A stretch of 32,000 bases of DNA, taken from positions 60,001 through 92,000 of the forward strand of contig NC_017262.1 in assembly GCF_000175255.2 (NCBI RefSeq), read 5' to 3'. The stretch is from Zymomonas mobilis subsp. mobilis ATCC 10988. GTDB taxonomy: Bacteria; Pseudomonadota; Alphaproteobacteria; Sphingomonadales; Sphingomonadaceae. Shown in pieces: positions 1-27,826 of the stretch. Under the pieces are notes generated by a model, which was not told the origin of the DNA, searched no databases, and saw only the letters and a program-made list of their open reading frames with translations. Numbering within the stretch: position 1 is the stretch's first letter; every line of letters starts with the position of its first letter. The position numbers and the translations under genes were made by a program.

Positions 1-293
1 ATCGTACTATCTATCATATGTTGCCAGTCATCTGTCAGGCCAAGGTCAACGAGAGTTTCAAGAAGAGCGTCCCACACACCCTGTTCTGCCCACCTACGAA
101 ACCGAACATAGACCGAATTCCATTTCCCATAACGTTCATGCATATCTCGCCACGGGCAGCCTGTTCGAAGCACATAAAGCATACCATTGAGAAATAACCG
201 ATTACTTTTGGCGGGACGCGCGCAGCGGCCTCGTTCGCTTGGAAGAAGACCCTGTATTATCTCCCACTCCGCGTCCGTCAGATCTCCTCGCAT
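1..293 (-). CDS. IS5-family transposase orfA, N-terminal part (partial, runs off the window)
   Basis: Same sequence as the 25041..25457 ORF (MRGDLTDAEWEIIQGLLPSERGRCARP...GCPWRDM...). The start codon is at 291-293 on the minus strand. Confidence 0.85.
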   Translation of the reverse strand, partial: MRGDLTDAEWEIIQGLLPSERGRCARPAKSNRLFLNGMLYVLRTGCPWRDMHERYGKWNSVYVRFRRWAEQGVWDALLETLVDLGLTDDWQHMIDST

Positions 294-369
294 CCTATCT
301 ACCCTACAAAACTTGTTCTCAAGTTATCTCTAAAAATCTTAAATTATACCCTTTGTCAACAGAACCTAG
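1..369 (-). mobile_element. Partial copy (about 43 percent) of an ~855-bp IS5-family (IS427-group-like) insertion sequence, cut by the window edge
   Basis: nt 1-371 read identical to 25165-25535. It ends in the terminal inverted repeat CCTTTGTCAACAGAACCTAG (350-369). Confidence 0.85.
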
Positions 370-7300: not shown

Positions 7301-7906
7301 GTGTTCTTGATGATGGGCTCTTCTCCTCCGAAAGGCAGGCCGATTTCGGCCTTTTTTTCTTTTCCTTGGTGCCGCCGCCATATTTTGACAACCGGATTAT
7401 CTGTTGTCGCTCTTTCGGTGACGGCGGATATCGCTTCTAACGCCTCATCTTCTCCGCTTTCGTCTGCGGATGTTCTTCATTTTATGAAATTATCGCTTTG
7501 TCTGACAGATCGGAAAACGCTTGATCCGGTGCTTGGCAAAGCGCTTTTTTCTAAATTAACCGACAATAATCCAAAACGCCGGACACAGCTTGATCAGCTT
7601 CTTGCTCTTTTCAATCGGCAGACATGGGATAATGCTAATCACTTCGTCAAAGAAGCGGTCAAAGAAAATCCAGATGCACCACCACTTATCAGGGATATTC
7701 TACACGGATGGTATCGCGGTATCGTCGATAACAAAGTCGTCGTTTACCGTTCGGCCATGATGTTTTCTCTGACCCGTAATATTCTCTATCCCAAAACCTA
7801 TGCCAATGGCGATTTATTCTATTGGACAACGCGCCCGCCAGAAGTGCCCCTTCCCAAAGCACAGCCCGCTATGCAGCCGGACGTTCCCGAAACTCTGGGA
7901 CAATAA
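7301..7906 (+). CDS. Small (gamma) subunit of a membrane-bound FAD sugar dehydrogenase, Tat-signal-like N-terminus
   Basis: It has the position and size of gluconate 2-dehydrogenase subunit-3-family proteins and carries an RRHILTTGLSVVALS twin-arginine-like signal. The start is uncertain (GTG 7301, ATG 7310 or 7313). Confidence 0.6.
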   Translation: MFLMMGSSPPKGRPISAFFSFPWCRRHILTTGLSVVALSVTADIASNASSSPLSSADVLHFMKLSLCLTDRKTLDPVLGKALFSKLTDNNPKRRTQLDQLLALFNRQTWDNANHFVKEAVKENPDAPPLIRDILHGWYRGIVDNKVVVYRSAMMFSLTRNILYPKTYANGDLFYWTTRPPEVPLPKAQPAMQPDVPETLGQ

Positions 7907-7924
7907 AAGCAGAAGGTATAACAG

Positions 7925-9562
7925 ATGACATCCAGCAACGATCTTTCTGCCGATATTGTGATTGTCGGTTCCGGTGTCGCCGGTAGCAGCATCGCCAAAG
8001 AATTGGCGAGTACAGGGGCATCGGTCATCGTCCTTGAGGCAGGGCCCCGTATTGACAGGCAACATATCCTCGATAATTGCCGAAATACGGTCAATAAAAA
8101 CAAATATGACGAGCCTTATCCGCCATCCCCTTGGTCAATGCATCCGCCCGACCAAAGCACCCCTAACGCTTATCTCCATACCACCGGCCCCGATGCACAG
8201 GCCTATCAGCAAAGCTATCTCCGTATTCTTGGCGGCACAACATGGCATTGGTCAGCCTGCGCATGGCGTTATCTGCCCTCTGATTTTGAATTACGGTCAC
8301 GCTATGGGGTAGGGCGCGACTGGGCGTTAAAATATGATGATCTCGAGCCTTTTTACTATCAGGCCGAAAGCATGATGGGCGTTTGCGGGCCTGATCCCAA
8401 GGTTGAAGACCTTGGCTCACCCCGCCGCCAACCTTATCCGATGGAAGCCTTGCCGCTTTCCTATGCGGCAGAACAGTTTAAAAAACTGATTGATAACCGC
8501 ACAGCCTATCGTGTGGTGCATGAACCACAGGCGCGGAATACCCGCCGCTATGACAATCGTCCGGTCTGCGAAGGCAATAATAACTGTATGCCGCTTTGCC
8601 CTATCGGTGCGATGTATAACGGTATTCATACCGTGCTTCATGCCGAAGCCGCAGGGGCGCGCTTTATTGACAATGCCGTGGTTTATAAAATCGAAACCGA
8701 TACCTCTAATAAAAAGGTCACGGCTGTTCACTATTATGACCCTGACAAACACAGTCATAAGGTCACGGGACGTATTTTTGTTATCGCGGCGCATTGCATC
8801 GAATCCGCCAAATTATTGCTCCTTTCTGCCGATGAAAAAAATCCAAACGGCATCGCCAATAGTTCGGATCAAGTAGGCCGGAATATGATGGATCATACCG
8901 GCGTGCAGGTCACTTTCATGAGCGGTCTGGATTCTCTTTGGTGTGGCAGAGGGCCTCTCGAAACCAATGTCATCGACAGCTTCCGAGATGGATCATGGCG
9001 GAATGAAAGGGGTGCTTATCTGGTGCATATGGTGGATGATAACCAGATCGACCTCGCCACGGCTTTAGCCATCGACAAAGGCTATGTCGGTAAAGACCTC
9101 GAAGATGAAATCCGCTATGGGGCATCACATCTGGTGCGTTTGTTCAGCCATAATGAAGGGATGCCGGATCCCGATAACCGTTTAACGCTCAGCAAAACCC
9201 ATAAAGACGTTCTCGGGATTCCCCATCCCGAAGTTTATTATAAATTGCCGGATTATACGGTGAGAAGCTGCGATCACTCCCGCAAGGTATTTAGGGAAAT
9301 CATGGGGCTGATGAAAGGCTCTGATCCACGCTGGACGCCGGGCTATTTTCCCCAAGACCATCCAGCGGGCAGCACCATCATGGGGCATGATCCCAAAGAT
9401 TCTGTCGTTGACGGATATAACCGGACACATGACCACGAAAATCTGTTTATCGCCAGTTCCGGCGTATTCGCTTCTATGGGAACGGGTAACATTACCCTGA
9501 CCGTGGCTGCCTTGGCGTTACGGGTAGCCGATACGCTGAAAAAAGAGATATATCATGGCTAA
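7925..9562 (+). CDS. GMC-family FAD-dependent dehydrogenase large subunit (gluconate 2-/sorbitol-dehydrogenase type)
   Basis: N-terminal ADIVIVGSGVAGSSIAKELASTGASVIVLEAG FAD fold, GMC-type C-terminus, 545 aa. Confidence 0.8.
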   Translation: MTSSNDLSADIVIVGSGVAGSSIAKELASTGASVIVLEAGPRIDRQHILDNCRNTVNKNKYDEPYPPSPWSMHPPDQSTPNAYLHTTGPDAQAYQQSYLRILGGTTWHWSACAWRYLPSDFELRSRYGVGRDWALKYDDLEPFYYQAESMMGVCGPDPKVEDLGSPRRQPYPMEALPLSYAAEQFKKLIDNRTAYRVVHEPQARNTRRYDNRPVCEGNNNCMPLCPIGAMYNGIHTVLHAEAAGARFIDNAVVYKIETDTSNKKVTAVHYYDPDKHSHKVTGRIFVIAAHCIESAKLLLLSADEKNPNGIANSSDQVGRNMMDHTGVQVTFMSGLDSLWCGRGPLETNVIDSFRDGSWRNERGAYLVHMVDDNQIDLATALAIDKGYVGKDLEDEIRYGASHLVRLFSHNEGMPDPDNRLTLSKTHKDVLGIPHPEVYYKLPDYTVRSCDHSRKVFREIMGLMKGSDPRWTPGYFPQDHPAGSTIMGHDPKDSVVDGYNRTHDHENLFIASSGVFASMGTGNITLTVAALALRVADTLKKEIYHG

Positions 9563-21734: not shown

Positions 21735-22946
21735 TCAGGCCGCCAAAACGCCAGTTGCTTGACCGGCTTTTTTAAACATCGCCAGAATTTCAGTGACATC
21801 ATCGTCGCTATGCTCGGCACAAAGCGAACAACGCAGCAAGAACATACCGGCAGGCGTTGCCGGTGGGCGTGCCAGATTGACATAAAGACCCAGCTCAAGC
21901 AGATTTTGCCACATGGCAACGGCTTGTTCCTGATCCGGCAGGATGACCGCAATAATTGCAGATTGAGCTGTTTCCGTTCCCAGATTGAAACCCATTTCCT
22001 TCAGGCCGCTATGCAAACGACGGGAGTTCTTCCAAAGATGTTCCCGCTTGTCATTGGCCTTTTGAAGTTTGCGGATAGAAGCCTCTGCGGTAGCGACCAC
22101 ACTTGGCGGCAAAGACGCCGTAAAGACATAAGGACGGCATACCAATCGCAGCACTTCAAATTGAGGATGGTTGGAAACACAGAAACCGCCAACAGTGCCA
22201 ACAGATTTTGAAAAAGTGCCGACGATAAAGTCAATCTGACCTTCAAGCCCCAATTCTTCAAAGACACCACGGCCGTTTTTCCCAAAGAATCCCATACCAT
22301 GGGCTTCATCATCAAGAATCAAGGCATCGTGCTTTTTGGCGATGGCAACCATCTCTGCCAAAGGCGCAATATCGCCCAGCATTGAATAAACGCCTTCCAA
22401 AACAACGAGTTTGCCTGCTTCTTTGGGTAAACGGGCAAGACGACGATCAAGATCTTCGGGAGAATTGTGACGAAAACGGATGATTTCCGCATTGCCAAGA
22501 CGGCAGCCATCATAAATCGAAGCATGGCTATCGGCGTCGATAATGACATATTCGCCTTTACCCGCCAAAGTTGAAATCATACCAAGATTGGCCTGATATC
22601 CGGTTGAAAAGACCATGGCATGTTCCATACCGTAATAGTCTTTCAAGGCTTCTTCACAGGCCTTATGCCCCTGATAGGTGCCATTTAAAACGCGAGAACC
22701 GGTGGTGCCTGCGCCGAATTCTTTTAATGCCTTTTCACCGGCAGCAATAACGTCGGGGTCAAAAGTCATCCCCATATAGTTATAGGTGCCAAGCAGGATA
22801 ACCGGCTTCCCTTTAATAATGGCCTTTGTCGGGGATAATACCTTTTCCATCACCACGGCAAAAGGATCACGGCCGCCATGACTTAACATTTCCTTACGGA
22901 TAGCAATCAGCGGGTCAAATTTTGAAAAAAGATCAGTCACCTGCAC
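21735..22946 (-). CDS. spt: Serine palmitoyltransferase (alpha-oxoamine synthase family)
   Basis: It is near-colinear with Sphingomonas SPT as I recall it: LLGTYNYMGMTFDPDVIAAG, GEYVI.DADSHASIYDG, LVVLEGVYSMLGDIAPL, and GTFSKSVGTVGGF with the PLP lysine. Confidence 0.9.
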   Translation of the reverse strand: MQVTDLFSKFDPLIAIRKEMLSHGGRDPFAVVMEKVLSPTKAIIKGKPVILLGTYNYMGMTFDPDVIAAGEKALKEFGAGTTGSRVLNGTYQGHKACEEALKDYYGMEHAMVFSTGYQANLGMISTLAGKGEYVIIDADSHASIYDGCRLGNAEIIRFRHNSPEDLDRRLARLPKEAGKLVVLEGVYSMLGDIAPLAEMVAIAKKHDALILDDEAHGMGFFGKNGRGVFEELGLEGQIDFIVGTFSKSVGTVGGFCVSNHPQFEVLRLVCRPYVFTASLPPSVVATAEASIRKLQKANDKREHLWKNSRRLHSGLKEMGFNLGTETAQSAIIAVILPDQEQAVAMWQNLLELGLYVNLARPPATPAGMFLLRCSLCAEHSDDDVTEILAMFKKAGQATGVLAA

Positions 22947-23007
22947 ATACTTTCAATTCTTATTCTTTTCAGACGGTATCAACCGCCTATCTCTTTGGGA
23001 ATATCGA

Positions 23008-23280
23008 TTATTTTTCGTTTACCAGCTTTTCAATTACCGCCACAAGCTGGCCGACAGTTTCAATTTCAGCCTGTAAATTCATCGAAATCGAAATATCGAA
23101 CTCATCTTCAACGGCAGCAACGAAATCCATAACCGTCAAACTGTCCCATTCAAGGCCAGTCGCAAAGCTGGTCTCTTCGGTCAAAGGAACCGCTTTTTTG
23201 TTGAACGGTTCGATAAGCGCGACAGTCTGCTGCCAAATAGCCTTATTTTCAGTCATAATTGATATCCCTTCACTCAACAA
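23008..23280 (-). CDS. SPT-associated acyl carrier protein
   Basis: 90 aa with GLEWDSLTVMDFVAAVEDEFD (DSL phosphopantetheine site). It lies immediately upstream of spt on the same strand. Confidence 0.75.
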   Translation of the reverse strand: MLSEGISIMTENKAIWQQTVALIEPFNKKAVPLTEETSFATGLEWDSLTVMDFVAAVEDEFDISISMNLQAEIETVGQLVAVIEKLVNEK

Positions 23281-23497: not shown

Positions 23498-24541
23498 ATG
23501 TCTAAACAGGGAGTATACGCGATGGTGGGACTGGAAAAATCCGCAAGCACCAATCCTTCTTTCTATAATCTGGGCAATGTGCAAAAGAGCCAAGGCGCTT
23601 TGCTTTATAAAACGGCGCCCCAGATTTTGGTGATTGCCTCGGATGCCGAGCGGCAAACGGAATTAGAAAATTCCGTTACCCATATGGGTTTTACAACCCG
23701 TATGTTTCCGATGGATGAAGCGGTAGAAGTTTTGCGAAATGGCATGGCGGGGGATGCTATTTTGCTTGATATGACATCGCTTCAAGATGAAAAACTAGCC
23801 GATGAACTGATGGATGCGGTTCTTGCCAGATTGTCTTATGACGTTATCGGGGTGGTTTTGAATATCCCCTTGGCGTTTATCGATATGGCCTATAACCGTT
23901 TCTTTGAAACGGATGTACAGTTACTGGTCGGCGGCGATGAAAAAAGTTGGCTCCCTGCTTTAAAAAAGGCGGTTCGTCCTCTTTCTTTAACTCTGCATGA
24001 TGTGGTTTCCGACACAAGAAGACCACCGTTAAAAACGATCAGCGAAGAAGTCAGCCGCATTGCCAGAATGCTGGAATCATTATCCAGTGAAGAAAATGCC
24101 AAGATGAATTACGCGCTGCCCTCTTCTTTTAACGGGGAAAGCCGTAGCAATGGGGTTGTCACGACCGAAGCACAACCCGAACAAAAGAAGATCAATATCA
24201 ATGCCGCTGTGGTTCGGGCTATCATCCGTTCACGCCGCTTGCGGGATCAGTATTTCTCGGCTTCGCTTTTCGCGGATCCGGCTTGGGATATGCTGCTAGA
24301 CCTGACGGCTGCCCGATTAGAAGGCCGCCAAGTCTCGGTTTCCAGCTTGTGTATCGCTTCCGCCGTGCCGCCAACCACAGCCTTGCGCTGGATCAAATCA
24401 TTGACGGAAGAAAAAATCTTCGTCCGTATCGCCGATCCTCGCGATGGCCGCCGCGTCTTTATCCAGCTGTCAGATATGGCGATGGATGCCATGATTCCTT
24501 ATCTTGCTGCCTCAATCAGCCTTGTCATGCGCGCGCTTTAA
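23498..24541 (+). CDS. Hypothetical regulator with a receiver-like N-terminal region and a MarR-like winged-helix C-terminus
   Basis: N-terminal ILVIASDAERQ...DAILLDM has a CheY-like strand pattern. The C-terminal part is ADPAWDMLLDLTAARLEGRQVSVSSLCIASAVPPTTALRWIKSLTEEKIFVRIADPRDGRRVFIQLS. It is divergent from acp-spt. Confidence 0.5.
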   Translation: MSKQGVYAMVGLEKSASTNPSFYNLGNVQKSQGALLYKTAPQILVIASDAERQTELENSVTHMGFTTRMFPMDEAVEVLRNGMAGDAILLDMTSLQDEKLADELMDAVLARLSYDVIGVVLNIPLAFIDMAYNRFFETDVQLLVGGDEKSWLPALKKAVRPLSLTLHDVVSDTRRPPLKTISEEVSRIARMLESLSSEENAKMNYALPSSFNGESRSNGVVTTEAQPEQKKININAAVVRAIIRSRRLRDQYFSASLFADPAWDMLLDLTAARLEGRQVSVSSLCIASAVPPTTALRWIKSLTEEKIFVRIADPRDGRRVFIQLSDMAMDAMIPYLAASISLVMRAL

Positions 24542-24566
24542 AATAACCTATAAAACTCTACCCACT

Positions 24567-24596
24567 AAAAAAGCCCGCATGATGCGGGCTTTTTTA
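24567..24596. terminator. Bidirectional rho-independent terminator
   Basis: AAAAAAGCCCGCAT-G-ATGCGGGCTTTTTT. It serves the plus-strand regulator gene and the reconstructed minus-strand HEPN-like gene. Confidence 0.8.
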
Positions 24597-24601
24597 TAAA
24601 A

Positions 24602-24679
24602 TCATTGTAGATCTGCATCTCTAATTTCAAAGGGTCTAAGTGCGTCCTTAATATTCTTTATAAGGTGTTGATGGCCCTC
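24602..24679 (-). pseudogene. 3' remnant (25 codons plus stop) of the IS-split HEPN-like gene
   Basis: After removing the IS and one copy of the duplicated TA, the frame continues ...KPEWIL-EGHQHLIKNIKDALRPFEIRDADLQ* to the TGA (24602-24604). The terminator lies directly downstream. Confidence 0.55.
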
Positions 24680-25457
24680 TAGGTTTTGTTGACAAAGGAA
24701 GGTAACCACAATTTTACGGCCGCGAGATGAAGGAAGGCGAGAAAAGATTTTCTGGTTTTGTCATAGCGTGTGGCAATGCGCCTGAACTGCTTTAGCTTAT
24801 TAAACATCCGCTCAATACGATTACGATCTTTGTAGTGCTGGAGATTATAAGGAATAGGCTTTTTTCGATTGGAACGAGGCGGGATAACAGGAAGAATGCC
24901 TCGAAAAAGCAGTTTTTCGCGTAACCTATCGCTATCATATCCTTTATCAGCGAGAAAACAGTGGGGTGTTGTGACAGGGATATCTATCAAGCTATCAGCG
25001 CCAGAATAATCAGAGACCTCACCACCGGTTAGTGCGAAAGCTAGAGGGCGGCCTTGACCATCGGAACGGGCGTGGATCTTGCTCGTAAAGCCTCCGCGAC
25101 TGCGACCAAAGCCTTCCTTATACGTCCCCCTTTTGCGCCAGCCGCTTGGCTGTGGGCGCGAATAATCGTACTATCTATCATATGTTGCCAGTCATCTGTC
25201 AGGCCAAGGTCAACGAGAGTTTCAAGAAGAGCGTCCCACACACCCTGTTCTGCCCACCTACGAAACCGAACATAGACCGAATTCCATTTCCCATAACGTT
25301 CATGCATATCTCGCCACGGGCAGCCTGTTCGAAGCACATAAAGCATACCATTGAGAAATAACCGATTACTTTTGGCGGGACGCGCGCAGCGGCCTCGTTC
25401 GCTTGGAAGAAGACCCTGTATTATCTCCCACTCCGCGTCCGTCAGATCTCCTCGCAT
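24679..25457 (-). CDS. IS5-family DDE transposase, orfA plus orfB joined by a probable programmed -1 frameshift
   Basis: orfA is 25041..25457 (DUF4096-like N-terminus). The -1 frame is open from the GCAAAAGGGGGA run (25125-25136) and reads RKRGTYKEGFGRSRGGFTSKIHARSDGQGRPLAFALTGGEVSDY...ADKGYDSD...YKDRNRIERMFNKLKQFRRIATRYDK. The stop TAG lies in the terminal CTAG. Confidence 0.85.
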
Positions 25458-25533
25458 CCTATCTACCCTACAAAACTTGTTCTCAAGTTATCTCTAAAAA
25501 TCTTAAATTATACCCTTTGTCAACAGAACCTAG
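24679..25533 (-). mobile_element. Complete IS5-family (IS427-group-like) insertion sequence, ~855 bp
   Basis: The terminal inverted repeats CTAGGTTTTGTTGACAAAGG (24679-24698) and CCTTTGTCAACAGAACCTAG (25514-25533) match at 19 of 20 positions. CTAG is present at both junctions, consistent with a TA duplication in a CTAG target. It holds a two-frame transposase. Confidence 0.9.
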
Positions 25534-26163
25534 TATCCACTCTGGTTTAATTCCAATTTTTTGAGCTAATTTTTTGATAGGTTCAGGCATAACTTTATTT
25601 TGGTCAATAGATAGCTTATACTCTTCTTCAGAAGATTTCGTGTCGATATCTGATTCAAATATTCCATTCTTATCCAAAAAAGAAAACATTATACTACAGA
25701 TAGTACTCTCACATTTTCTGATAATATCTAAAAGATACTTTGCAAAACTTTTATAGCTTTTGCTACCCAATCGATTGGGTATTTTTTCTGGTGCTATAAT
25801 TAAAACAAAATTATTTTTAATATGAGCATTTGCGGTGATATCTAATCCGCGATGAACAATAGCATTTCGGATTTCATGTATATATAAATAATTAGATTTT
25901 CCATCTGGAAAATCTTCAAATGAAAACTGAGAGTGCAATGTTTTTTGTAAATCATCATCTTTAAATTTTTTTTGCTCAAAGATAAGATCTACTGCTGAAA
26001 TCAAATTTATAAAATAATTAGAATAGTGAATCCTCATATCTATACAATCACCTGTAGAAAGAGGCGTTCGAAATTTTAAGGCTGTACGAAGTGCTGTCTT
26101 TCTAGCTGTCATATACCATAAGAATGATTGTAATATTTTTTGATCTTCGCTGCTTAAAACCAT
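25534..26163 (-). pseudogene. 5' part (210 codons) of a lone HEPN-like (RNxxxH motif) protein gene, interrupted by the IS
   Basis: The ORF-track protein (226 aa) runs into the IS after ...IGIKPEWI. It contains YIHEIRNAIVHRGLD (R-N-x3-H). The gene is about 30 percent GC by eye and has a strong SD, AGGAGA. Confidence 0.5.
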
Positions 26164-26220
26164 TATGGTCTCCTAGAGAACTAAATAATACATTCTTTTT
26201 TCTATAGAGACCATAATGGT
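26159..26220 (-). promoter_or_regulatory. Long hairpin between guaA and the HEPN-like gene; it covers that gene's SD and ATG and may also act as the guaA terminator
   Basis: The arms are ACCATTATGGTCTCCTAGAGAA (26159-26180) and TTCTATAGAGACCATAATGGT (26200-26220). There are 14 perfect bp plus about 6 more, and a 19-nt loop. Confidence 0.5.
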
Positions 26221-26245
26221 AATTTGTCTGTTCAAAAATTGAATG

Positions 26246-27826
26246 CTATTCCCATTCAATCGTTCCGGGTGGCTTAGAGGTGAAATCATAGGTCACACGG
26301 TTAATGCCTCTGACCTCATTCACAATACGGGTGGCGACATTGGCGAGAAATTCCGGCTGGAAAGGATAGATTTCAGCGGTCATTCCGTCGGTCGAAGTCA
26401 CCGCTCGCAAGGCGCAAACAGAATCGTAAGTTCTGCCGTCACCCATCACACCAACGGTTCTGACGGGTAACAATACCGCAAAAGCCTGCCAAATCGCATT
26501 ATACAAACCAGCATTACGGATTTCTTCAAGATAAACCGCATCCGCCTTACGCAAAATATCGCAGCGTTCCTTGGTCACTTCACCCGGAATACGGATAGCC
26601 AGACCAGGACCTGGGAAGGGATGACGATCGACGAAGATGTCAGGCATTCCCAATTCGCGCCCTAAATCGCGGACTTCATCCTTGAACAATTCACGAAGCG
26701 GCTCGACCAGCTTCATATTCATGCGTTCGGGCAGGCCACCAACATTGTGATGGCTTTTAATCGTTACCGACGGGCCTCCAAGGAAGCTCACGCTTTCGAT
26801 CACATCAGGATAAAGCGTGCCTTGAGCAAGGAAGTCGGCACCACCGATTTTTTTGGCTTCTTCTTCAAAAATTTCGATAAAAGTTTTGCCGATGAATTTT
26901 CGCTTGGTTTCAGGGTCAGTTACGCCCTTTAAACCAGCCAAGAAGCGGTCTTCAGCATTCACGTGAACCAGTTTGATACCATAATGCTCACGGAACAGGG
27001 AAACGACCTGCTCGGCTTCTCCCTGACGCATCAAACCATGATCGACAAAAACACAAGTCAACTGGTCGCCAATAGCTTCATGCACCAAAACGGCAGTCAC
27101 AGAAGAATCAACACCACCAGACAAGCCGCAAATAACACGACCATCGCCGACTTGTTTGCGGATTTCAGCAATTTTTGTCTGACGAAATTCCGCCATCGTC
27201 CAATCACCGGCCAAACCGCAGATGTCATGGACAAAATGAGCGATCAGCTTACCTCCATCAGGGGTATGCACCACTTCAGGATGAAATTGCATGCCATAGA
27301 AACGGCGGTTTTCATCAGCGATCAAAGCGAAAGGCGCACCATCAGAAACCGCAATAGGCTTAAAGCCTTCAGGCAAAGCCTCGACCCGATCGGCATGGCT
27401 CATCCATACTTGATGCTTTTCGCCGACCTTCCACAAATTTTCAAACAGAGGCGAGGGGGCGATTACATCAATAAAGGCACGGCCAAATTCGCCATCAACA
27501 TCATTGGCGGTAACTTTGCCGCCCAATTGATGGCACATAACCTGCTGCCCATAGCAGATGCCGAAAATCGGAATACCTGCCTGAAAGAAGGATTCCGGCG
27601 CTCTCGGGCTGCCTTCTGCGACAACAGAAGCCGGACTACCCGAAAGGATAATACCTTTTGGCTGCAAGCGCTGAAAGGCTTCTTCTGCACGGTTAAAAGG
27701 GACAATTTCGCTATATACACCGGCTTCACGGACACGGCGAGCGATAAGCTGGGTGACTTGGCTTCCGAAATCGACAATGAGAATCGATTCAGAAACAATT
27801 TTATCGGCGATTGAAGAAACGGACAT
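26246..27826 (-). CDS. guaA: GMP synthase (glutamine-hydrolysing)
   Basis: [20 protein letters not shown], the [12 protein letters not shown]-loop and a C-terminal KPPGTIEWE. Confidence 0.95.

Follow-up and report, generated by a model that had tools for sequence, protein, structure and literature searches.

What is the lone, AT-rich gene that lies beside guaA in Zymomonas mobilis subsp. mobilis ATCC 10988, and what is left of it after an insertion sequence (IS) split it? The gene lies on the minus strand of a 32,000-nucleotide stretch of contig NC_017262.1 (positions 60,001 to 92,000; hereafter the window, whose own coordinates are used below). An initial annotation, made from the letters and open reading frames (ORFs) alone, had taken the gene for a horizontally acquired, stand-alone HEPN-type RNase of the abortive-infection or toxin kind. 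We reconstructed the gene, compared it with other strains and with its relatives in other genera, modelled the protein and analysed the surrounding DNA. The explanation that fits the observations best, and that we consider moderately likely on the combined strength of sequence comparison and predicted structure, is that the locus carries an IS-inactivated copy of a divergent, minimal and solitary HEPN-type RNase effector.

The ORF now present encodes 226 amino acids and includes EIRNAIVHRG, which the initial annotation had matched to the Rx4-6H motif of HEPN RNases; the motif is indeed there, and exactly this protein (P0001) was found in three assemblies. The sequence is native as far as the IS junction, and this 5' part is 86% identical at the amino acid level to an intact allele, P0002. 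The ORF had also been described as running into an IS whose removal, together with one TA, would add 25 codons and restore a protein of about 236 amino acids. We identified an 849-bp element with imperfect terminal inverted repeats of 17 bp (GGTTTTGTTGACAAAGG / GGTTCTGTTGACAAAGG) and a TA target-site duplication. When the element and one TA were deleted, the TA target completed codon 211, the rejoined sequence read CTA GAG in frame, and the frame gained exactly 25 codons (EGHQHLIKNIKDALRPFEIRDADLQ*), giving 236 amino acids with a TGA stop at 24602-24604. P0002, an uninterrupted homologue of 236 amino acids, stops where this reconstruction predicts. The displaced 3' end agrees with the C-terminus of P0002 and holds L221 and L225, conserved residues of the last helix.

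Judged by its sequence, the inserted element is an IS5-type insertion sequence: it has a two-frame DDE_Tnp_1 transposase, short terminal inverted repeats and a 2-bp TA duplication, as IS5-family elements do, and the Pfam domains DUF4096 and DDE_Tnp_1 are recorded for an identical IS in another assembly (L013). We take it to belong to the IS427 group of the ISfinder groupings. It shares with the elements of that group a length of about 850 bp, 17-bp terminal inverted repeats, a two-frame DUF4096 and DDE_Tnp_1 transposase and a TA duplication at CTAG, and no notable difference from them was seen. The element is an unremarkable IS that this genome carries in more than one copy. Its insertion at the CTAG in codon 211/212 swapped the conserved last helix for 15 IS-encoded residues. 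Because the C-terminal helix is conserved (L225 in 85 of 99 aligned family members), the truncation is probably damaging; on this comparison the insertion most likely inactivated the protein, and the window gene is a probable IS-made pseudogene. A second copy of the IS lies at window 1-366, where it is cut by the left edge; it is 100% identical to element positions 484-849.

The gene is not present in all strains. In the Z. mobilis assemblies L014-L019, whose GuaA is 100% identical, the site is empty and consists of the guaA TAG, 23 bp and the terminator. The absence of the gene from strains with identical GuaA thus defined an islet of 780 bp, counted without the IS and one TA. In the alignment this islet comprises a 63-nt leader, the ORF and 6 nt, and it is bounded by the guaA stop-proximal GAACAGA and by a bidirectional terminator that was there before it, being found at the empty sites too. 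No flanking repeats were seen at the islet ends in the alignment with the empty-site strains. The G+C content of the gene is 30%, against 46% for the rest of the window. The terminator hairpin has a folding energy of -20 to -21 kcal/mol (z-scores -5.0 and -7.4), and in a scan of window 24300-26400 the sub-threshold Rfam leader/terminator matches were confined to it. In other Z. mobilis assemblies the intact P0002, labelled a Zymomonas mobilis hypothetical protein, occupies the same site in the order guaA, gene, convergent 339-aa gene, acyl-carrier-protein and serine palmitoyltransferase pair (intact gene at 8001-8711 of locus L001). The window flanks are 97-100% identical to those of the empty-site strains and 92-98% to those of the intact-allele strain. 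The islet was therefore much as first described: AT-rich, about 0.8 kb, with a single gene, between guaA and a conserved terminator that had been placed at 24567-24596. The proposed horizontal acquisition was supported by the empty sites, the low G+C content and the recurrence of the gene, within a block of about 0.9 kb, in unrelated contexts across genera. Between the Zymomonas alleles, the synonymous divergence (dS) of the gene is 0.10 and that of the flanking genes is 0.14-0.23; as these values are close, the gene has probably resided long at the guaA site and was then lost in some strains.

When 1.84 billion cluster representatives were searched exhaustively with HMMER, 132 relatives were obtained, nearly all of 200-260 amino acids, from Alpha-, Beta- and Gammaproteobacteria and at least one Acidobacterium. 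A profile search of a 5.8-billion-protein set gave few extra sequences and no annotated relatives. By these sequence comparisons the protein is a member of a previously unannotated family. Conservation was counted in an alignment of 99 divergent members, the most remote at about 20% identity. All 99 have R99, and 97 have H104, at the four-residue spacing, so that the R and H whose conservation among homologues had been proposed as a check of the RNase assignment are indeed kept. Position 100 is N in 91/99, H in 6/99 and S in 2/99. The residues after the motif, R105 (96/99) and G106 (94/99), and Y94 before it (95/99) are nearly as constant. Acidic residues assigned to the second helix are conserved at D/E59 (96/99) and E/D63 (88/99), not in the usual Ex3[KR] form. 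In the wider family, dN/dS, the ratio of non-synonymous to synonymous divergence, is 0.11-0.33, which is purifying selection and hence argues that the family genes are working.

HEPN domains are four-helix bundles with an Rx4-6H motif, placed at a helix end that leads into a loop, in which a polar N, D or H follows the R; helix 2 often carries an acidic residue, and inserts are frequent between helices 2 and 3 (Anantharaman et al. 2013, PMC3710099). AlphaFold2 gave confident models of the 236-aa protein (pLDDT 91.3 over the whole chain, 96.5 over residues 1-170). In these models the N-terminal 170 residues would form two long helices (5-29 and 37-62), a short helical insert (70-79) and a third helix (88-105) that ends in R-N-x3-H-R-G, with the motif (99-104) at its C-terminal end. 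The core would continue with a four-strand beta-meander (113-138) and a fourth long helix (144-165), and residues 175-236 are predicted to form a small helical C-terminal domain (elements within 175-224). The order of the predicted elements agrees with the description cited above, and no solved HEPN structure was among the Foldseek matches. We also scanned the 99 members individually with E-values up to 1, that is, below threshold. The only Pfam families matched by more than one member were HEPN families (17 matches in five families: DUF4145, eight; HEPN_Cthe2314, three; HEPN_RiboL-PSP, pEK499_p136 and HEPN_LA2681, two each). Among the PADLOC models about 11 of 19 matches were to HEPN (RTasHEPN and CARF_HEPN, four each; ApeA and Csx1, one each). 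The same member scan against NCBIfam, used as a control, gave 22 unrelated singletons. On the motif, its placement at a helix end in a helical core and the enrichment of sub-threshold HEPN matches, we consider it probable that the family is a divergent branch of the HEPN RNases. The coordinates of the features are collected in Table 1.

Table 1. Features of the islet and its surroundings (window coordinates)
Feature	Position	Strand	Remarks
Strain-variable islet	24596..26226	-	1631 bp in this strain, 780 bp once the IS and one TA are taken out
HEPN-like gene, 5' part	25533..26163	-	Codons 1-210 and base 1 of codon 211
Rx4H (HEPN-type) motif R99-N-A-I-V-H104-R-G106	25846..25869	-	Codons read from the ORF
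Displaced 3' end of the gene	24602..24681	-	Rest of codon 211, last 25 codons (EGHQ...DADLQ), TGA
Current ORF	25483..26163	-	226 aa; terminal 15 residues (GSVDKGYNLRFLEIT) come from the IS end
Insertion sequence	24682..25530	-	849 bp; same orientation as the broken gene
IS transposase ORF1	25041..25457	-	One of two overlapping frames
IS transposase ORF2	24679..24990	-	Second of two overlapping frames
TA target-site duplication, left copy	24680..24681		Within the former CTAG
TA target-site duplication, right copy	25531..25532		Within the former CTAG
5' leader hairpin	26160..26219	-	13-15-bp arms CCAUUAUGGUCUC / GAGACCAUAAUGG, 34-nt loop
guaA (GMP synthase)	26246..27826	-	Adjoins the islet upstream, same strand; Pfam GATase / GMP_synt_C
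Bidirectional intrinsic terminator	24567..24595		A6-stem-T6; common to the islet gene and the convergent 347-aa gene
Convergent 347-aa gene	23498-24541	+	339 aa in some assemblies; no Pfam family in the precomputed record

We gathered 26 loci of the family from named genomes and metagenomes. The hosts include Comamonas, Castellaniella, Vogesella, Paraburkholderia, Caballeronia, Azotobacter, Acinetobacter, Paludibacterium, Martelella and a metagenome-assembled genome of the Terriglobales. An all-against-all ORF comparison revealed no conserved neighbour in these loci; only shadow ORFs inside the gene recurred, and the same-strand upstream genes seen in four loci were mutually unrelated. A conserved partner gene was thus rejected, the neighbours being different across the loci, and no MNT nucleotidyltransferase gene stood beside the gene in any of them. 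The absence of a visible MNT or antitoxin partner, first remarked on in the window, is matched by the lack of any conserved protein partner in these 26 loci. DNA comparison limited the homology between loci to a block of about 890-945 bp, which begins 100-135 bp before the start of the gene, ends 30-120 bp beyond its stop and falls into two subgroups, each 80-94% identical across genera. The contexts are of two kinds, lone insertions among housekeeping genes and integrative islands or integrative and conjugative elements with Mrr-type nuclease, PIN toxin-antitoxin, PIN-TPR-GreABC or AAA_15 ATPase genes. In 25 of 29 loci the gene had a lower G+C content than the DNA around it. The flanks found with the block elsewhere are missing from the Zymomonas islet.

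Two further observations concern the block. Paludibacterium denitrificans carries on one chromosome two copies of 959 bp, 98% identical and about 410 kb apart in unrelated flanks (7872-8830 of both L024 and L033), the sole clear case in which the bare block is duplicated within a genome. One subgroup has a 17-nt motif, GATGTCnnCTTTCGGGC, on both sides of the gene, one copy on each side and in direct orientation. Written with its variants as GATGTC(G/A)(C/G)CTTTCGGGC, it lies about 75 nt before the start and about 70 nt past the stop (L021, 7920-7936 and 8775-8791; L032, 7918-7934 and 8776-8792). A second short repeat, CC(T/G)CGGCCTAT(T/G)CA, adjoins this motif in swapped order.

The initial annotation had noticed a hairpin upstream of the gene, at 26159-26220, and had suggested that it may provide the regulation. 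The hairpin is real, with a folding energy of -29.1 kcal/mol and a z-score of -5.3. The Shine-Dalgarno sequence (AGGAG) and the AUG lie within its 3' arm, and pairing takes in the whole 17-nt initiation region. The other Zymomonas allele has the hairpin as well, again with a z-score of -5.3. A simple sigma-70 consensus scan of the 82-bp gap that separates guaA from the gene showed no promoter of the gene's own; read-through transcription from guaA is likely, and for want of a promoter-like site in the gap, read-through combined with translational occlusion is the simplest arrangement. The suggested regulation is thus plausible in Zymomonas, where the translation start is occluded, but it does not extend to other genera: their homologues have no hairpin over the start site, significant structure there being limited to the two Zymomonas alleles. 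A family-wide hairpin was accordingly rejected, and the hairpin appears to be a local solution, not a family trait. The 34-bp loop (window 26173-26206; L001 7958-7991) is inverted relative to the gene between the window-type and P0002-type alleles. Three independent assemblies agree on each orientation, and both orientations retain the hairpin and the purine-rich Shine-Dalgarno sequence. The inversion could be a one-off flip of the hairpin loop or a switch.

Previously described proteins place the gene in context. Solo Abi-type HEPN families are listed in PMC3710099. In DARNA (PD-T7-3) residues 1-159 make up the HEPN domain (R117x4H122), to which a C-terminal domain is joined; its catalytic histidines are reported to lie about 8 Å apart, and once activated it cleaves tRNA anticodon loops. 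ApeA is a lone HEPN anticodon nuclease (bioRxiv 10.64898/2026.02.22.705581, 10.64898/2026.01.26.701840). The HEPN toxin AbiF is neutralised by RCd22, an RNA encoded upstream of it (PMC12373285). Given these examples, a HEPN gene without a partner is not unusual, as it had been said to be, and we regard the present family as unannotated and somewhat unusual. With the Abi-type solo HEPN proteins (AbiD/F, AbiJ, AbiU2, DUF4145-like; PMC3710099) it shares R-N-x3-H, with a polar residue after the R, at a predicted helix end in a helical bundle, a conserved acidic position in the second helix, a predicted insert separating helices 2 and 3, and the life of an accessory, horizontally moved and often partner-less gene in restriction or toxin islands. 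In contrast to them, it falls below threshold in the Pfam, PADLOC and NCBIfam HEPN models, has no Foldseek match, and adds a four-strand beta-meander, a near-invariant R-G after the H and a C-terminal helical domain of 60 residues.

The likeness to DARNA and ApeA is one of architecture only: a single gene, an N-terminal HEPN-like Rx4H core followed by a non-catalytic C-terminal domain, no antitoxin, and activity that in the present protein, too, would be off until triggered. DARNA, however, has 456 amino acids and forms dodecamers through a large Pds5-like domain, whereas the protein here has 236 and a 60-residue tail; ApeA forms large ring oligomers with a ligand pocket. The protein had no match to the PADLOC or Pfam models of ApeA and DARNA/PD-T7-3, and one of the 99 members touched ApeA with an E-value of 0.023. 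AbiF with RCd22 (PMC12373285) likewise appears as a solitary HEPN-type toxin gene with RNA regulation encoded just upstream. The protein here, in contrast, has no match to Pfam Abi_2, which is absent from the 25 Pfam families listed in the 99-member scan, and the loci scanned contain no Rfam abiF motif; the hairpin of Zymomonas lies in cis over the ribosome-binding site, and the upstream RNA shows no conserved structure outside Zymomonas. HEPN-MNT pairs (HepT-MntA) have in common with our protein an RNxxxH-type Rx4H motif in a small helical protein. They differ from it in that no MNT gene is adjacent here and no DUF86/HEPN Pfam match was found, and the protein is about twice the size of HepT.

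Several results weigh against a HEPN effector. The structure search that the initial annotation had proposed as a check gave no support: Foldseek, in which the full-length model was searched against PDB and BFVD and the core-only model against PDB, returned no significant match, HEPN or other (best E-values 0.17, 0.03 and 0.5), and the top matches, IpaD/SipD, translin and nuclear receptors, were generic helical bundles with TM-scores below 0.35. Scans of the protein with Pfam, NCBIfam, PADLOC and PHROGs produced no match at threshold, and three family profiles searched against PDB sequences found nothing relevant. The sub-threshold HEPN matches may be driven mostly by the short motif helix. 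In a tblastn search, no homologue was found on 72,556 plasmids or in 50,697 phage genomes. Between the Zymomonas alleles dN/dS is 0.69, compared with 0.006-0.05 for the flanking guaA, 339-aa and serine palmitoyltransferase genes, and in Zymomonas the gene may be drifting rather than working; such fast protein change would fit either relaxed constraint or diversifying selection. An alternative that we hold to be unlikely is a helical protein of a new, non-HEPN fold in which the Rx4H match is convergent and Y-x-R-E-L-R-N-x-I-V-H-R-G would serve nucleotide or ligand binding, DNA binding or regulation. It would account for the lack of a structural neighbour even with a core model of such high confidence, for the silence of four profile libraries, and for the beta-meander after the motif helix and the strict conservation of R105-G106; neither the meander nor a strict R-G after the H is, to our knowledge, a general HEPN feature. 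It would not readily explain why the full HEPN signature is present, with an invariant R, an N or H next to it, the H at +4 spacing, the helix end and the acidic helix-2 residue, nor why sub-threshold HEPN matches recur in five Pfam families and several PADLOC models when NCBIfam gave singletons. Foldseek may, in our assessment, miss small helical bundles with inserts. The initial claim of a HEPN-type RNase stands on the motif, its helix-end placement in a helical core and the enriched sub-threshold HEPN matches, but not on a HEPN fold found by structure search. Two side results belong here. The sole structure-search match with a non-trivial TM-score was A0A516KPP1 in BFVD, a model of an unnamed 166-aa viral protein (probability 0.96, target TM-score 0.58, E-value 0.2). 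In a sample of ten divergent members that were scanned to locate the alignments, there were no HEPN matches.

Two other explanations turn on the DNA around the gene. The gene might be the toxin of a type III-like RNA-antitoxin module, with the co-travelling non-coding DNA encoding a neutralising RNA, as in AbiF with RCd22 (PMC12373285); the RNA would come from the leader hairpin in Zymomonas and elsewhere from the 100-135 nt upstream and 30-120 nt downstream. Conserved non-coding flanks are always part of the mobile block, GATGTCnnCTTTCGGGC stands once on each side of the gene in one subgroup, and the Zymomonas hairpin is strong and kept in both alleles. We nevertheless consider this improbable: RNAalifold detected neither a conserved fold nor covariation upstream of the gene (-1.6 and -7.2 kcal/mol), Rfam gave no match in window 24300-26400, L021 or L009, the hairpin is restricted to Zymomonas, and there are no ToxI-type tandem repeats. 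The unit of 0.9 kb might instead be a minimal mobile element and the protein its unconventional recombinase or homing enzyme. Such an element would suit a discrete block that recurs in many genera at sites of no common kind and without a recombinase beside it, and the two near-identical copies in Paludibacterium denitrificans. Yet the inverted termini of the block (CGRCC...TTGC by eye) were no better than random 26-mers (p 0.1-0.97), and no target duplications were visible in its flanks; on these two grounds a transposon reading was dropped. Moreover, the protein has no signature or profile match of a DDE, HUH, tyrosine or serine recombinase, nearly all genomes hold one copy, and the Zymomonas islet lacks the flanks present elsewhere. 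We give this last explanation only a very slight chance.

The preferred reading, an inactivated copy of a solitary HEPN-type effector, can be put as follows. The locus would be the insertion-inactivated copy of a 236-aa stand-alone gene on a horizontally acquired, strain-variable islet, and the intact protein would be a divergent metal-independent RNase of the HEPN superfamily, in which dimerisation would join two R/H motifs, by analogy with other HEPN enzymes. It may be a toxic effector that is complete in itself, either for abortive infection or as a selfish toxin, laid out like ApeA and DARNA and normally silent. In Zymomonas the gene would be transcribed by read-through from guaA, and the strong leader hairpin, by pairing the Shine-Dalgarno sequence and AUG, would hold translation down. 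A farther-reaching proposal, which we put forward as tentative and rather doubtful, is that the family represents a new class of minimal, partner-less HEPN-like effectors of about 236 amino acids that spread through the Proteobacteria as a bare single-gene module of about 0.9 kb. That module would carry its own control region and no recombinase, serve an anti-phage or addiction role, be controlled at the RNA level or within the protein itself, and have a core fold too remote from solved HEPN structures for a structure search to detect.

If the HEPN assignment is true, the family adds a hitherto unannotated set of RNase effectors that are very small and have no partner; it comprises about 130 clusters at 50% identity. 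Pfam, NCBIfam, PADLOC and PHROGs are blind to it, so that annotation from these libraries reads hypothetical. The small size would make it a convenient minimal system for the silencing and triggering of a lone HEPN nuclease, and its gene-sized 0.9-kb block moves between genera with no visible recombinase. The intact, IS-broken and absent alleles of Z. mobilis offer ready isogenic comparisons in an industrial organism for which phage resistance and genome stability matter. For the window itself the practical meaning is modest, namely a probable pseudogene made by an ordinary IS.

The two Zymomonas alleles differ by 33 amino acid changes in 236, which cluster at residues 37-45, 111-113, 129-134 and 149-165 and leave the catalytic motif untouched. 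In a distant subfamily (P0164, 295 amino acids as called), the gene call overlaps an upstream 214-aa ORF by 4 bp (L042, 3278-4806; L043, 3407-4935) and is followed by a convergent AAA_15/AAA_21 ATPase gene. None of the other loci encodes a relative of the 214-aa protein, and the long N-terminus of P0164 may reflect a mis-called start. As for the convergent 347-aa gene on the far side of the terminator, the C-terminus of its product resembles a winged-helix DNA-binding domain by eye. The gene adjoins an acyl-carrier-protein and serine palmitoyltransferase pair (21735-23280), and because of this neighbourhood it may be linked to sphingolipid synthesis.

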